Source of the DNA: a virus
Direction: 5' to 3' (one strand)
Length of the DNA: 64,000 bases
IMG/VR virus record: IMGVR_UViG_3300037419_001224
The notes beneath the pieces are model-generated. The model was not told where the DNA came from, searched no databases, and saw nothing but the letters and a program-made list of their open reading frames with translations. Position 1 is the stretch's first letter. The number at the start of each line of letters is the position of its first letter. The position numbers were made by a program, and so were the translations under genes. Positions 29,564 through 59,064 of the stretch are shown in pieces.

Positions 29564-29570
29564 AGGCCAG

Positions 29571-29596
29571 AAAAAGAAAAACCCGCACGAGGCGGG
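29571..29596 (-). terminator. Intrinsic terminator directly after the tRNA-like gene
   Basis: Minus strand reads CCCGC-CTCGT-GCGGG followed by TTTTTCTTTTT. Confidence 0.55.
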
Positions 29597-29624: not shown

Positions 29625-29690
29625 TGGTGGCGGCAGGACTCGAACCTGCGACCTCTCCTTGCGGATGCTCTGCCGCTGGGCTACGCCACC
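29625..29690 (-). ncRNA. tRNA-like RNA gene with truncated anticodon arm (about 65 nt)
   Basis: GGTGGCG-TA-GCCC-AGCGGCA-GAGC-A-TCC-GCAA-GGA-GAGGTC-GCAGG-TTCGAGT-CCTGC-CGCCACC-A. Perfect 7-bp acceptor stem, D arm and T arm. The anticodon arm is replaced by a 3-bp stem with a GCAA tetraloop. Confidence 0.6.
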
Positions 29691-29693
29691 AGA

Positions 29694-31142
29694 TCAATAG
29701 CCGGCTTCCGCATCCAAGACGCCGATCACGACGCCGGCCTGCTGGAACCGGAAATGTTCCATGTTCACTCTCGCGTACCGCTTGGCCATCAGCGCATAGC
29801 GGGTCGCGGACATCAGGTCATCGTCTTCCTTGACGAGTTTTCCATCCTTGCGGTGGTAGATCCGGTATTCCTCGAACCAGTCGTTCAGGTGCCGGAACAC
29901 CTTGAACCGGCCCGTCTGCATGCGGTCGAGCATTTCCATGATCCCGGCCTCGACCGAATTGCTGCCGTCCGGCCAGGTGACCTTCTCGCCCATCATGTTG
30001 ATGCCGGCGTCCTTGTACAGCTTCGACAGCCGTTCGCCGGACCCCTTGTCGTGCTGCATGCCGTCGTGCGGCCACGCGACCGGAATCCAGTTCCCCTTGC
30101 CGCGCATCATCGCCGCATGGACCGCCGGAGTCTGTTCCTTTTCCCGGTAGCAGTCGTACACGTACATCGTGTCGGTGTCCGGGTCGAACGCCGCCCAGAC
30201 CGCCGCGAACGCGTGGTTGTAGCCAAAGTCGACCGCCGCCACCCTCGGCCAGTGGGCCGGGATCTTGAACGGCTCGACCATGATCCGGTCTTCCACGACC
30301 GGGAACACCGCGCCGGAACCAAGCAGCGGGATACCGAGCAGACGCGCCTTTCTCTCGTGGTCCTTGTACCGGGCCGCGATCTGCGCACGCTCTTCCGCCG
30401 TGTAGTGCAGCGCGTCGTCGATCGTCATCTGCACGTAGGTCGTGCCTAGCGGCTTCTCTTGCAGGAACCGCTTGACGACCTTCGACATCCCGAGCAACGG
30501 GGTAAACGTCAGGAACACGAACCCTTTCGTCGCATTGGTCCGGGTCAGCCCTTCCATGTAGATATCTTCAGGCGGCTCCTCGTCGAACCACACGAACTCC
30601 AGGGTTTCGCCCTGCCAGCGCTCACGTCCCTGGTCGTAGGTCTTCAGCGTGATCCGCGACAATCCTCCGGTGGCGTATCGCACCGAGATCGATTCGACCG
30701 CATCGGGAACCCCGTGCGCGGCCCGCTTGATCTCGACGATCGACTCTTTCGGGATCATCCCGGTGCCCCACTCGCCGGGTTTCCCTAGCAGCAGCCGCTG
30801 CACCGTGTCGCGGGTTCCCTGCGACGTCTCGGACGCAGCCCATGCAGTCACGGGCGCGGAGAATTTCCTGCCAGGCCACCAGTCCGGGTACTTGCCGGTC
30901 AGGTGCATCGCGGTCTCGGCGGACGCAGCCAAGGTCTTGCCGAGCTGGTTGCCCGCCATCAGCAGGACTTCCGAGATCCCAGGCCGAGCCGAGCACGCGT
31001 GAAAATCCTTTTGCTTCGGGTACGGCGCGTAATGGGCGAGCTGGTTTTCCTTGAGTTGCCGTTCTTTCGCTTCGAGCAACTCCAATAGCTGCCGCTTCTC
31101 GTCCATTGACATGGTCGAGAGGTCGATCTTGGATAAGTCCAT
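29694..31142 (-). CDS. terL: Terminase large subunit
   Basis: 482 aa with ATPase region (LMAGNQLGKT) and C-terminal nuclease region. Adjacent to the portal. Confidence 0.8.
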   Translation of the reverse strand: MDLSKIDLSTMSMDEKRQLLELLEAKERQLKENQLAHYAPYPKQKDFHACSARPGISEVLLMAGNQLGKTLAASAETAMHLTGKYPDWWPGRKFSAPVTAWAASETSQGTRDTVQRLLLGKPGEWGTGMIPKESIVEIKRAAHGVPDAVESISVRYATGGLSRITLKTYDQGRERWQGETLEFVWFDEEPPEDIYMEGLTRTNATKGFVFLTFTPLLGMSKVVKRFLQEKPLGTTYVQMTIDDALHYTAEERAQIAARYKDHERKARLLGIPLLGSGAVFPVVEDRIMVEPFKIPAHWPRVAAVDFGYNHAFAAVWAAFDPDTDTMYVYDCYREKEQTPAVHAAMMRGKGNWIPVAWPHDGMQHDKGSGERLSKLYKDAGINMMGEKVTWPDGSNSVEAGIMEMLDRMQTGRFKVFRHLNDWFEEYRIYHRKDGKLVKEDDDLMSATRYALMAKRYARVNMEHFRFQQAGVVIGVLDAEAGY

Positions 31143-52062: not shown

Positions 52063-52863
52063 GTGGGTCACATCATGGGTGGCAGGAAGTGTCCGTGTTG
52101 CATGGGGCCGCTGTGGTTCGACCAGGCGAAGGGCTATCCGCACTGCTTGATTTGCGAGAGGGAGTTCCCGGAAGACTGGAATCAATACATCACTGATCGT
52201 GCGAAAGACGATTTTGCAGACAGCCGGAGAGACGGCACTTTGACAACCTATGGAGAAAAGGCAATGAGTGATACATCAATTCTGACCGAGTATGACTTTA
52301 TCGCAATGGTGGACGCGTCCGGCTCGATGGGCTCGGAAGACGCACCGAACGGGCGCTCCCGCTGGGCGTACATGCAGGAGACCGCAGAAGCGTTCTGCCG
52401 CGATATCCAGAAGCTGGATAGCGACGGCATCGGGCTGGTCGTGTTCGGTGGCTCGCAGATCGACTCGTATGACGGCGTGACTGTCGACAAGGTGGGCGAG
52501 GTTTTCCGCTCGCGTTCGCCGCGTGGTTCGACTCCTTTGGCCGAAGCGCTGACCTCTGCGTTGAAGCTGGCCGGCAAGTCGAACAAGAAGGACTTCATCA
52601 TCTGCTTCACTGATGGCGTGCCGGACGATCAGGATGCCGTGGCGCGTGTGATCCGCGAAGCGTCGAACAAGCAGGATAGCGATGATGCATTGACGATCCT
52701 GTTCGTTCAGGTTGGCCGTGACCAGGCCGCGACCGCGTACCTGAAGAAGCTCGACGACAACATCAGCGGATGCCGGTTCGACATTGTGGACGCGAAGACG
52801 ATCGACGAGGCGGAGAAGTTTGCCACCACGACCGATCTGATCCTGGCCGCGATCAACGACTAG
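52063..52863 (+). CDS. vWA-domain protein (TerY-like) with N-terminal zinc ribbon
   Basis: CPCC...CLIC ribbon. Then the MIDAS motif DASGSM, plus ...GSTPLAEAL... and FTDGVPDD. An internal alternative start (MSDTSIL, 52264) would give a stand-alone vWA protein. Confidence 0.75.
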   Translation: MGHIMGGRKCPCCMGPLWFDQAKGYPHCLICEREFPEDWNQYITDRAKDDFADSRRDGTLTTYGEKAMSDTSILTEYDFIAMVDASGSMGSEDAPNGRSRWAYMQETAEAFCRDIQKLDSDGIGLVVFGGSQIDSYDGVTVDKVGEVFRSRSPRGSTPLAEALTSALKLAGKSNKKDFIICFTDGVPDDQDAVARVIREASNKQDSDDALTILFVQVGRDQAATAYLKKLDDNISGCRFDIVDAKTIDEAEKFATTTDLILAAIND

Positions 52864-52871
52864 CAGGTTAT

Positions 52872-52986
52872 GCCGACGTAGCTCAGCCAGGTAGAGCACA
52901 GGGCGCTGACCGCTGCTTGCAAGGATCGCCACCTTGGGCAAGTCACATTGGCCTTGAGGCCGCAGGTTCGATTCCTGCCGTCGGTT
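52872..52986 (+). ncRNA. tRNA-like RNA gene carrying about 40 extra nt between the D arm and T arm (115 nt)
   Basis: Acceptor GCCGACG/CGTCGGT, D arm GCTC-AGCCAGGTA-GAGC and T arm GCAGG-TTCGATT-CCTGC are canonical. The middle 63 nt cannot form one standard anticodon arm plus a short variable loop. Confidence 0.55.
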
Positions 52987-52997
52987 CATTTACGGAG

Positions 52998-53219
52998 ATG
53001 CAGATGAATATCAAAGGTTACTTGCTGAGCCGTGCTGACAGCACGAGCGCATGGATCGGTTTCGTTGGGTTCGTGCTTGAGATCCTGCTCCACATGGGGA
53101 ACGTGTCCACGATCATGCTGGTGCTATTCGCGGCGCTGATCGTGCTGCCGGAGACGAAAGTCAGGGAAGTGTTTGCCGACTGGACGAAGAAGATCAAGGA
53201 CTCGGATTTCGTGGGGTGA
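52998..53219 (+). CDS. Membrane protein
   Basis: 73 aa, with GGAG upstream and two TM segments. Confidence 0.45.
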   Translation: MQMNIKGYLLSRADSTSAWIGFVGFVLEILLHMGNVSTIMLVLFAALIVLPETKVREVFADWTKKIKDSDFVG

Positions 53220-55078: not shown

Positions 55079-55333
55079 ATGAGTCACGGGCCGATTGAAG
55101 AAAAGCATTACGAGACGATGCGGGCTGTCGCGGATGCGTTGAACGAGTTCTTTGCTGGTTACGGGTTCGTCCTTCTCGTATTCGAGATGACGAACCCCGG
55201 CGAGATGCCGAAAGAGGACGCGAGGATGAATTACGTCTCAAACTCCAGAAGAGACGATGTGCTGGCCGCGATGAAGGAGTTCATCGCCAACGCCGAGGGG
55301 CGCGTTGTGGATGCGCCGAGGAGCAAGCAGTGA
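55079..55333 (+). CDS. Hypothetical protein
   Basis: ATG with a strong SD (GAGGAGAGAGAA). Confidence 0.5.
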   Translation: MSHGPIEEKHYETMRAVADALNEFFAGYGFVLLVFEMTNPGEMPKEDARMNYVSNSRRDDVLAAMKEFIANAEGRVVDAPRSKQ

Positions 55334-55788
55334 ATGACGATCAACGCGGATTCGCTGCCATCGGCCTTTACCGACCAAAGGACACGAACAACATGGGCTG
55401 CGTGATGCGTGCTGCCGGTTGCTACGGCGCAGCCATGGTTGCGATCCAGGGTCCGCGCTTCGGCAACTCGAAGACCGATACGCAGAAGGCATGGAAGCAT
55501 ATCCCGACGATCCAGACTGATGAACTGCTCGGGGTTATCCCGTTCGGTGCGGTGCCGGTTGCCATCGAGATACTGCCATTCGCGAGGCCACTGACAGGGT
55601 ACGTCCATCCAGAGCGTGCTTTCTATATCTTCGGGCCGGAGGACGGATCGATATCGCTCGACATTGTTAGCCGCTGCCGCGATGTCGTATATGTGCCGAC
55701 CAACTACTGCATGAATCTGGCGGCGACGGTGAACGTGGTCCTGTATGACCGGATGCTGAAGCGTACAGCACAAAGGAGAGTGGCATGA
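55330..55788 (+). CDS. SpoU/TrmH-family (SPOUT) RNA 2'-O-methyltransferase
   Basis: Three SPOUT motifs: NMGCVMRAAGCYG, YIFGPEDGSI and VPTNYCMNLAATVNVVLYD. Confidence 0.7.
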   Translation: MNDDQRGFAAIGLYRPKDTNNMGCVMRAAGCYGAAMVAIQGPRFGNSKTDTQKAWKHIPTIQTDELLGVIPFGAVPVAIEILPFARPLTGYVHPERAFYIFGPEDGSISLDIVSRCRDVVYVPTNYCMNLAATVNVVLYDRMLKRTAQRRVA

Positions 55789-57690: not shown

Positions 57691-57981
57691 GTGAAAGCGA
57701 TCCTCAAGAAAGATGAGCTGGCAGAAGAGCTGCAATGCAGTGAAAGACATATTGAACGATTGATGAAGGAAGGTTTACCATTCATTCCGTTCGGTCGTCG
57801 TCACAAGCGCTATGACCTGGACTCCGTTATCAACTGGCTCAAGTCGAGGGAATCATGCCTACCAGAAAGGACGCCGAAGGGCGTTGGCACATCGAGATTT
57901 GCTCCGAAGGTCAACGCATACATCGAATTCTGCCGAAAGGTACAGGGAAGAGGGAAGCCGAGGCAAAGGAGCACGAGCTGA
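57691..57981 (+). CDS. AlpA/Xis-like HTH protein (excisionase candidate)
   Basis: GTG start. LAEELQCSERHIERLMKEGLPFIPFG....YDLDSVINWL. The frame stays open 127 nt into int. Confidence 0.45.
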   Translation: MKAILKKDELAEELQCSERHIERLMKEGLPFIPFGRRHKRYDLDSVINWLKSRESCLPERTPKGVGTSRFAPKVNAYIEFCRKVQGRGKPRQRSTS

Positions 57982-58802
57982 AGCAATCGTTGGAATCGCG
58001 CAGGTACACGCACGATCCGGCACTCATCGATGTCATGAACCTGTATGTTGAGCACGCAGACTCGCTGCGCAGCGCCTCGACAGCGAAATACCACGCAGCA
58101 CGTATCGTTCCCTACATCGAAGGGAAACGCGCCTCAGATGCCAAGGATTGCGCAGACACGATCACAAGCAAGCTGCGCGCAAAAGGCTATGCGATCGCCA
58201 CGATCAACCGCAGCCTGGGCACACTGAAGAAAGCGCTCGGCCTGGCGTTCGACAAGCATCTCACCGAGATCAACTACGGCATGTATCTGCGCCGCATGCC
58301 CGAGCATAACGAGCGCGACGTGTTCCTCTCGATCGATGAAGTGAAGAAGATCTGCGACTGCGCGAGCGAGAACGTGCGGGCCGCGATGTGGATCGCACTG
58401 TTGACCGGCATGCGGCGCGGCGAAGTCCTCAAGATCAAGAAGGAAGACATCAAGGGCGACATCATCATTATTCCCGCCGGCAATACCAAGGCGTTCAAGA
58501 AGCGTGTGGTGCCGATCACGAAAGCCGTTATCCCCTGGCTGGAGTACGTGCCGTTCTCGATCAACTTCGAAGGGTTGAAGACGGGGTTCAGGCGGGCAAG
58601 AGAAAAGGCCGGTATGCCGCACGTCCACTTCCATGACCTGCGCCATTCCTGCGCATCACTGTTGATCGAGAGCGACGTGCCGATCGAGGTCGTGTCCAAG
58701 ATCATGGGGCACTCGTCGATCAAGATGACGGAACGCTACGTGCATATCCGTGCGGAACGCCAGCGCGAGGCGCTCGAAAAGACGTTCGGCAAGCTCGGCT
58801 AG
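57855..58802 (+). CDS. int: Tyrosine integrase
   Basis: 315 aa. ...LLTGMRRGE..., HFHDLRHSCAS and GHSSIKMTERYVH (R-H-R-Y catalytic set). Confidence 0.9.
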   Translation: MPTRKDAEGRWHIEICSEGQRIHRILPKGTGKREAEAKEHELKQSLESRRYTHDPALIDVMNLYVEHADSLRSASTAKYHAARIVPYIEGKRASDAKDCADTITSKLRAKGYAIATINRSLGTLKKALGLAFDKHLTEINYGMYLRRMPEHNERDVFLSIDEVKKICDCASENVRAAMWIALLTGMRRGEVLKIKKEDIKGDIIIIPAGNTKAFKKRVVPITKAVIPWLEYVPFSINFEGLKTGFRRAREKAGMPHVHFHDLRHSCASLLIESDVPIEVVSKIMGHSSIKMTERYVHIRAERQREALEKTFGKLG

Positions 58803-58989: not shown

Positions 58990-59064
58990 TGGTGGGCGGT
59001 ACTGGGATCGAACCAGTGACTTCCACCGTGTGAAGGTGGCACTCTACCGCTGAGTTAACCGCCC
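58990..59064 (-). tRNA. tRNA-Val(CAC): tRNA-Val, anticodon CAC, CCA encoded
   Basis: GGGCGGT-TA-ACTC-AGCGGTA-GAGT-G-CCACC-TTCACAC-GGTGG-AAGTC-ACTGG-TTCGATC-CCAGT-ACCGCCC-A-CCA. A fully canonical 75-nt cloverleaf. Confidence 0.9.

Follow-up and report, generated by a model that had tools for sequence, protein, structure and literature searches.

In a 64,000-nucleotide (nt) stretch of viral DNA (IMG/VR record IMGVR_UViG_3300037419_001224; herein the window, meaning the whole stretch at its full length), a 115-nt element on the plus strand (52872-52986) has the shape of a transfer RNA (tRNA) gene with 47-48 extra bases in its anticodon loop. The DNA is that of a temperate phage or prophage of soil and rhizosphere. 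We interpret the element as a lineage-specific tRNA-Thr pseudogene that has lost decoding and was made by templated insertion, about 46 bases of coding sequence from the adjacent vWA-domain gene having been copied into the anticodon loop of a tRNA-Thr gene; the probability that we attach to this reading is about 0.62.

The match to a tRNA scaffold is far beyond chance. The Rfam tRNA model (RF00005; gathering threshold 29 bits) aligns with the element end to end (model positions 1-71; 49.5 bits, E = 1.3e-7) and places a 47-nt insertion inside an anticodon loop of 48 nt. A sequence-only reading, made by a model from the letters and the open reading frames (ORFs) of the window, had described a gene derived from a tRNA, its acceptor, D and T arms canonical and CCA not encoded; its coordinates, length and arm assignments proved exact. 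The layout is GCCGACG-TA-GCTC-AGCCAGGTA-GAGC-A-CAGGG-[48 nt]-CCTTG-AGGCC-GCAGG-TTCGATT-CCTGC-CGTCGGT-T. Seven pairs form the acceptor stem (GCCGACG/CGTCGGT), the first of them G·U; the loop of the D stem (GCTC/GAGC) carries G18 and G19; U8 and A9 are present, as are T54, T55, C56 and A58 of the T arm; and the variable loop has 5 nt. For the tRNA core, G15:C48 and G46 can be read from the sequence as available, and the discriminator T is followed by CA. Two of the checks proposed with the sequence-only reading gave divided answers: Rfam was positive, ARAGORN in default mode did not call the element, and ARAGORN in intron mode returned tRNA-Ala(cgc) with a 21-nt intron. The parts of the element are as follows.

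52872-52898 (+): tRNA 5' part, comprising the acceptor 5' strand GCCGACG, U8 A9, the D arm GCTC-AGCCAGGTA-GAGC and A26; Rfam posterior '*' throughout, acceptor strand identical to that of the L418 and L419 tRNA-Thr genes.
52899-52903 (+): CAGGG, 5' strand of the outer anticodon stem; the vWA-derived block starts within it and shares its last two G; paired by Rfam with CCTTG at 52952-52956 and part of a 6-bp helix in RNAfold.
52902-52947 (+): insert S', the vWA coding copy, GGCGCTGACCGCTGCTTG ... GGCAAGTC ACA, with the hairpin CAAGG-ATCGCCA-CCTTG as its middle; located by sequence alignments and a composite pattern.
52916-52942 (+): inner 9-bp bulged hairpin CTTGCAAGG-ATCGCCA-CCTTGGGCAAG, tip loop AUCGCCA at 52925-52931; seen in the sequence and in the minimum free energy (MFE) and centroid folds.
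52952-52961 (+): 3' strand of the outer stem, CCTTG, and the 5-nt variable loop AGGCC; Rfam alignment.
52962-52986 (+): T arm GCAGG-TTCGATT-CCTGC, acceptor 3' strand CGTCGGT and discriminator T, then CA; Rfam alignment.

The scaffold is of threonine type. A scan of IMG/VR for tRNAs of ordinary length that share the acceptor and T loop gave two matches, both tRNA-Thr: L419 with anticodon CGT (GCCGACGTAGCTCAGCTGGTAGAGCAGCTGATTCGTAATCAGCAGGTCGCCGGTTCGAATCCGGCCGTCGGCTCC) and L418 with anticodon TGT. Both have the acceptor (GCCGACG/CGTCGGC, its last base apart), the discriminator T and the D arm in common with the element, and the best scaffold matches among the 634 ARAGORN tRNAs of the fetched loci are also Thr. 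Compared with the ordinary CGTCGGC-T-CCA, the element has T in place of C72 (a G1·U72 pair) and TCA in place of TCCA. Read from the sequence, its central 63 nt hold no GGT, TGT or CGT triplet. The identity set of the E. coli threonyl-tRNA synthetase (ThrRS) consists of G1-C72, C2-G71, G35 and U36 (review PMC9976931). Three of these four determinants are lost from the element and only C2-G71 is kept. The element cannot read a codon, and three independent lesions in a tRNA-Thr gene read as the signature of a pseudogene.

The extra bases have a counterpart in the gene directly upstream. A short-word blast against all fetched sequences located the exact 17-mer GGCGCTGACCGCTGCTT (element nt 31-47) inside the vWA gene of an unrelated contig (L290; 17/17), and element nt 31-76 (window 52902-52947) are collinear with the vWA-family codons for (E)ALTAALKLAGKS(D), the stretch "EALTAALKLAGKS". 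In the alignment the element row reads GGCGCTGACCGCTGC-TTGCAAGGATCGCCACCTTGGGCAAGTC--ACA and the family consensus GGCGCTGACCGCTGCnTTG-AAGC-TGGCC------GGCAAGTCGGACA. With the homologous segment (75 nt) of 79 vWA genes as target, the insert reached a best local score of 39; 1000 shuffled inserts gave 20.5±3.05, and none of them attained 39. The 14-mer GCGCTGACCGCTGC has two sites in the window with at most one mismatch (0.10 expected), and the composite pattern GCGCTGACCNCTGC-N0-2-TTG-N8-30-GGCAAGTC (29 specified bases) matches, among 407 loci, only the insert of the element (El2), the vWA gene of the prophage itself and the vWA gene of L290. The prophage's own counterpart lies 357 nt upstream of the insert in direct orientation.

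52546-52585 (+): segment S within the vWA gene, codons for EALTSALKLAGKSN, the own counterpart of S'; GCGCTGACCTCTGC equals the insert with 1 mismatch, and the composite pattern and alignments agree.
52063-52863 (+): vWA-domain gene, of the donor family of the insert, ending 8 nt before the element; Pfam VWA_2 2.9e-9, VWA 2.6e-6.

On this alignment evidence the extra bases are a copy of vWA coding sequence and not an intron, and the stretch copied is the most conserved of the vWA family. Since dozens of homologues conserve the vWA segment as coding sequence and the element is unique, the copying went from the vWA gene into the tRNA gene. Most probably the neighbouring gene, or one of its alleles, served as donor through a template switch during replication or through illegitimate recombination. 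Compared with the gene, the copy has gained about 7 nt in its middle, where a weak inverted repeat CTTG...CAAG has become CTTGCAAGG-ATCGCCA-CCTTGGGCAAG, with a perfect hairpin of 5 bp and a 7-nt loop at its tip. Such a hairpin is the expected product of a quasi-palindrome template switch, which would make it in one step, as far as a mechanism can be judged from its product. The product has an intact "top half" of acceptor, T arm and D arm and, in the position of the anticodon arm, an irregular rod of about 19 bp. Templated insertion was rejected as a general source of long inserts in phage tRNAs: the inserts of 94 other expanded viral tRNAs showed no significant copies elsewhere in their loci, paralogous tRNAs apart. 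A template/variable repeat pair of a diversity-generating retroelement was also rejected, as S and S' differ by indels and by changes at bases other than A; a reverse transcriptase was not searched for in the window.

Both folds proposed in the sequence-only reading are present, that is, the outer stem CAGGG/CCTTG at canonical distance from the T arm with its 48-nt loop, and the bulged hairpin together with GGCC-TTGA-GGCC; its statement that the middle is canonical in no fold was borne out as well. Folded alone, nt 28-85 form a rod of 6+4+4+5 bp with the tip loop AUCGCCA (-19.4 kcal/mol, RNAfold). This fold is no better than chance (z = -0.38; 66 of 200 shuffles are as stable), nor is that of the whole element better than its dinucleotide shuffles (z = -0.27). 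A structured functional insert, implied by the sequence-only reading alongside a new short tRNA intron, was rejected on these energies. Nowhere does the element offer a 5-bp anticodon stem with a 7-nt U33/R37 loop at canonical distance from the D and T arms: the tip loop, which ARAGORN in intron mode reads as anticodon CGC, has C and not a purine at position 37 and stands about 14 bp too far out.

Excision does not restore a canonical arm. Every single contiguous segment was removed in turn; a solution had to combine a stem of 5 bp, no more than one of them G·U, with a loop of 7 nt that has U33 and a purine at 37, and with a variable loop of 4-5 nt. For the element there were zero solutions at any position; the same test recovered the introns of 37 of 38 archaeal-type tRNAs from metagenomes. 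Read from the sequence, every 41-nt excision that keeps the outer stem leaves G33 or C33, and by inspection the two 3-nt bulges and 4-bp helix of a bulge-helix-bulge (BHB) motif cannot be formed around element nt 33-80. An intron of BHB type, or any other single-segment intron, was rejected. A group I intron fails on size (41-48 nt against >200 nt with the P1-P9 core), as the sequence-only reading had it, and on the lack of an Intron_gpI match at the gathering threshold or even at E<=10. A permissive scan of 52700-53150 against all 4227 Rfam families gave beyond tRNA only chance-level matches, and a ribozyme or other Rfam family was rejected, tRNA alone matching even at E<=10. Also rejected were transfer-messenger RNA (tmRNA; none found by ARAGORN in the window, no Rfam tmRNA match, no tag reading frame) and the Y RNA YrlA (no TROVE gene, normal arm order, no Rfam match). 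A search of the literature on short phage tRNA introns or extended anticodon stems found nothing relevant.

Identical copies of the element occur in three samples of the Joint Genome Institute (JGI) and in contigs of ten soil and rhizosphere DNA runs at depths up to 345x, so it is not an assembly artefact. The genomic relatives of the vWA gene are Burkholderiales prophages, including those of Massilia, Pseudoduganella, Rhodocyclaceae, Delftia and Variovorax. The 88 sequences scanned were vWA-relative loci, taken from GTDB genomes and IMG/VR, and three copies of the phage itself; in none of the relatives did ARAGORN, with or without intron mode, find a same-strand tRNA-like gene after vWA. In a Delftia locus an ordinary tRNA-Lys lies on the opposite strand. 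In five viral contigs whose vWA proteins are 62-71% identical, vWA is followed by nothing but a terminator-like hairpin and a gene for a small membrane protein. The nearest relative (L327; flanking proteins 79% and 74% identical) has there a 51-nt intergenic region that is an intrinsic terminator, TCGGGA-N9-TCCCGATTTTTATTTA; the 115-nt element occupies exactly this terminator's place, and TTYATTTA follows in both. The element is absent from four further relatives at 76-79%, and no homologue of it was found in the fetched vWA-relative loci, five further close relatives or 80 relatives of the large terminase subunit (TerL).

Wider scans of contig collections, pattern-based rather than run with a covariance model, agreed: an exact 32-mer scan of viral contigs gave 0 matches, and gapped D-arm/T-arm scans of viral and metagenome contigs found many long tRNAs, none related to the element, the metagenome matches being mostly archaeal intron-containing tRNAs. 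A blastn search of 50,697 phage records returned only short tRNA-arm matches. The element thus appears restricted to this phage lineage, where it has evidently replaced an ancestral terminator hairpin. The comparative alignment proposed by the sequence-only reading found no homologue to align in the relatives examined. That reading had also named, as grounds for its own refutation, a unique and non-conserved insertion into a tRNA that is ordinary at homologous loci; the insertion, and indeed the whole element, is unique to the lineage, but the homologous loci have no tRNA there rather than an ordinary one. In L412, a vWA relative, no gene is called in the 436-nt stretch after vWA (1604-2040), which appears to encode an HNH/AP2-like motif (YIAWINMRQRC...YGGRGI); the motif may belong to a homing endonuclease in this same intergenic hotspot.

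The temperate phage or prophage in the window is marked by a tyrosine integrase gene (57855-58802), which a normal tRNA-Val(CAC) adjoins (58990-59064, -), and by a large terminase gene (29694-31142, -). The element lies in an early, nin-like plus-strand block that comprises YqaJ exonuclease, SSB, vWA, two small ORFs, NinB, a SpoU-family methyltransferase and a Lar-like protein. It begins 8 nt past the vWA stop codon, and the SpoU_methylase gene (55330-55788) follows 2.3 kb downstream, in keeping with the context given by the sequence-only reading. No promoter-like or terminator-like sites were found near the element, so it should be co-transcribed with its neighbours in the early operon. It would probably still be recognised by RNase P, the 3' trimming enzymes and the CCA-adding enzyme, and RNase P may still excise it from the early transcript. 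Homologues of the vWA protein number 1051, of about 200 amino acids and mostly unnamed. At its N terminus the vWA ORF of the window is extended by about 60 amino acids (52063-52270), among them a zinc-ribbon-like CPCC...CLIC, the relatives of about 200 amino acids starting near residue 66; the ORF is 266 amino acids long from GTG and 253 in the JGI call. The G+C content passes from about 63-65% in the structural minus-strand module (1-31000) to about 53-59% in the early/lysogeny module and the flank past tRNA-Val (32000-64000), which suggests a mosaic origin of the two halves.

A further tRNA-like gene of the same prophage has an abnormal anticodon arm. This 66-nt gene (29625-29690, -; 45.4 bits) begins 4 nt downstream of the stop codon of the terminase gene. 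The acceptor, T and D arms are intact, the last with one C·A mismatch; the 17-nt anticodon arm is replaced by the 11 nt UCC-GCAA-GGA-G, and CCA is lacking. A strong terminator, GCCCGC-CTCGT-GCGGGTTTTTCTTTTT, follows at about 29568-29595 (-). Element nt 85-109 (variable loop and T arm) are 23/25 identical to 29631-29655 (-), and the 7-mer GCAAGGA is present in both genes. A gene of this type was not found after TerL in 80 viral relatives. One relative with a 68% identical TerL has, after the terminase gene, a 95-nt tRNA-like gene with about 17 extra pyrimidine-rich loop bases (L415:2237-2331, also L416 and L417); it has the acceptor GCAGCGG/CCGCTGC-A-CCA, a 7-bp stem GTCTCTC/GAGAGAC and a 22-nt pyrimidine-rich loop, and ARAGORN in intron mode reads it as tRNA-Arg(tcg) with a 17-nt intron.

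The evidence is not all on the side of a pseudogene. Apart from its lesions the scaffold is flawless, with all 21 stem pairs and all bases for tertiary interactions. From the family consensus, to which the first 17 nt of the insert conform, the prophage's own vWA departs at 2 of 17 positions, and Ala is thereby changed to Ser. So a different allele served as donor, or else the element has stayed conserved over some time. If the prophage's own gene was the source and has drifted since, the insertion is of some age, and more decay would be expected of a neutral relic. The DNA runs and public copies show no variants of the element, and no RNA run contains its sequence. Finally, the near-identical T arm of the 66-nt gene and the further case beside a related terminase could point to tolerance or use of scaffolds that lack an anticodon, for instance as sites of RNase P processing in place of terminators; the recurrence could equally be detection bias, tRNA models finding only those relics whose scaffolds are intact.

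These points lend themselves to an exapted, non-decoding scaffold, for which the nature of the insert would be irrelevant. RNase P and 3' processing would cut the early polycistronic mRNA where relatives have a terminator, uncoupling vWA from the membrane-protein and NinB genes, or the RNA would titrate a host factor that binds the acceptor/T-arm end, such as a tRNA-end-modifying toxin. The damage is confined to the anticodon arm and the extreme 3' end of a perfect scaffold, the element sits exactly at the intrinsic-terminator site of the nearest relative without a promoter or terminator of its own, the prophage holds two such genes and a relative a third, and the 17-nt block was retained while the prophage's own vWA copy drifted. 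Precedents are established in the 3' processing of MALAT1/mascRNA, mitochondrial tRNA punctuation and the RNase P processing of P1/P7 C4 RNA. Against this, the element is conserved in no relative examined, the G1·U72 pair and the lost CCA resemble decay, and detection bias could account for the recurrence; we regard such a role as possible but unlikely. The wider claim, that both anticodon-less genes of the prophage (the rod element and the 66-nt gene after the terminase) and the third in the relative are retained on purpose, as processing "punctuation" in place of intergenic terminators or as decoys against host factors by which the acceptor end of tRNAs is sensed or attacked, we consider distinctly improbable. 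A tRNA-like RNA might instead display a sense copy of a conserved vWA mRNA segment and so titrate whatever binds it (an antisense RNA, an RNA-binding regulator or RNA-guided defence). That the insert copies the family's most conserved stretch, directly after the vWA gene, would suit this idea; the match at only about 36 of 46 positions, with indels, the remodelled middle, the lack of an antisense promoter or known partner and the restriction to one lineage speak against it, we know of no precedent for a regulatory mimic of this kind, and we give it very little credence.

A functional tRNA from which the extra bases are removed, through self-cleavage or a hitherto unknown endonuclease-ligase pathway of the bacterium or phage, is a similarly faint prospect. 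It can draw on the intron-mode ARAGORN call, on the short inserts with consistent boundaries that other phage tRNA genes do have and on the 7-nt loop of the inner hairpin with U at its position 2. However, the excision test leaves no proper arm, the ARAGORN solution needs C37, places the intron at 32/33 and leaves 25 nt of unstructured variable region, neither a BHB motif nor an Rfam ribozyme or intron family is present, the supposed intron is vWA coding sequence, and the scaffold is of Thr type, though its central 63 nt lack an NGU triplet. The least credible reading in our view is a class II-like tRNA, in which CAGGG-CGCUGAC-CGCUG (anticodon CUG) would be the anticodon arm and a two-hairpin region of 46 nt the variable region. 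The MFE fold does have a small hairpin (31-43), a long hairpin and GGCC-UUGA-GGCC, and nt 73-112 are weakly similar to the variable and T arms of phage tRNA-Leu and tRNA-Ser (blastn, E ~1). Yet this imperfect arm, put forward in the sequence-only reading, has a G·G mismatch and G33 and corresponds to the vWA codons GCG CTG ACC GCT G; the D arm is class I; the Levitt pair and the variable loop AGGCC are canonical only with CCTTG at 81-85 as the 3' strand of the anticodon stem; and the fold energy does not exceed chance. A tRNA-Thr pseudogene with a templated insert, presumably without function, remains our preferred reading.

The searches also brought up other expanded tRNA-like genes. In unrelated GC-rich viral contigs (L096:3367-3463 (-), L055, L110, L016:1205-1305, L043 and L063:9949-10033) the anticodon arm is a long rod; that of L096 is a perfect 16-bp stem with a canonical-looking loop GUUACGA, and L055 and L110 have a common 10-bp stem with compensatory changes (CTGCGGTACA/TGTGCCGTAG vs CTGCTGCACA/TGTGCAGCAG). 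The window prophage and these GC-rich rod-arm phages have no proteins in common. Phage tRNA arrays contain tRNA genes of 95-125 nt (Rfam tRNA 42-58 bits) whose anticodon stem is interrupted in its 5' strand by an insert of 41-50 nt; examples from IMG/VR and metagenomes are L171:49-148, L104:14663-14763, L076:2483-2580, L072:2970-3067, L030:1143-1244, L024:2064-2166, L019:1806-1907 and L122:649-885. The insert is made up of a purine-rich run, a 5-8-bp hairpin, a conserved single-stranded (A)ACAGCAA and a pyrimidine-rich run, and for at least 11 distinct genes there is exactly one excision, at 28|29 or 29|30, that yields a perfect arm with a sensible loop (L171 ACGGG-CTTTTAA-CCCGT; L104 CGAGC-CTTTTAA-GCTCG; L076 CGACC-CTTATAA-GGTCG). 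No Rfam family besides tRNA matches these inserts, and nothing on them was found in the literature; they appear to form a class, not yet described, of short intervening sequences of bacteriophage tRNAs, unrelated to the element. Membership of this "hairpin + ACAGCAA" class was rejected for the element, from which the motif and boundaries are absent and for which no excision solution exists.

For annotation, the case matters in that covariance pipelines would annotate the element as a tRNA at 49.5 bits although it does not decode, and ARAGORN -i would give tRNA-Ala with an intron; neither call is evidence for short bacterial tRNA introns. The insert would be a clean natural case, in a phage genome, of templated insertion followed by perfection of a palindrome. 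If it is true that phages keep anticodon-less scaffolds as processing signals or decoys, this would be a new use of tRNA mimicry in temperate phages.

Several known systems share features with the element. The ordinary tRNA-Thr genes L419 (CGT) and L418 (TGT) match it in the acceptor 5' strand GCCGACG, the 3' strand save the last base, U8 and A9, the D stem, discriminator U, the T loop TTCGAWT and the 5-nt variable loop; the element differs in the 48 nt that stand for an anticodon loop, in C72 -> U, in CCA -> CA and in the lack of an NGU anticodon in its middle. Archaeal and eukaryal pre-tRNAs with BHB introns also have tens of extra anticodon-loop bases that lengthen the anticodon helix, whereas the element has no BHB motif, yields no canonical arm upon excision and belongs to a Burkholderiales host group; to our knowledge, no splicing endonuclease is described in Burkholderiales. 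Group I introns of bacterial and phage tRNA genes share the anticodon-loop position, but not the size of 41-48 nt, theirs being >200 nt, and Intron_gpI does not match the element. In tmRNA and YrlA, too, a tRNA-like acceptor/T/D module is joined to a long irregular helix. The element differs from tmRNA in having no tag reading frame or pseudoknots. YrlA has a permuted T-acceptor-D arm order and a Ro60/TROVE neighbour (PMC4201824). In the element the arm order is not permuted, and the neighbour has a vWA domain only, with no Ro60/TROVE gene.

Templated insertions and quasi-palindrome template-switch mutations are established in E. coli genetics, and the element resembles them in that a nearby sequence, 357 nt upstream, was apparently copied in direct orientation and an imperfect inverted repeat CTTG...CAAG is now perfect and longer; here the mechanism is judged from the product, and the donor may be another allele, as the 17-mer is nearer to the family consensus than to the prophage's own copy. 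We know of no description of a templated copy of an adjacent gene as the disabling lesion of a tRNA. Like tRNA pseudogenes and tRNA-like fragments of prokaryotic and phage genomes (tRNAscan-SE "pseudo"), the element has a covariance-model score without decoding, is lineage-specific and bears 3'-end lesions; it differs from such fragments in being of full length and in that its disabling lesion is, on the alignments, a templated copy of the neighbouring protein-coding gene. Fragments have been mis-called as tRNAs (bioRxiv 10.1101/2022.07.05.498093). Among these systems, the element should best be filed as a phage tRNA pseudogene or tRNA-like relic.

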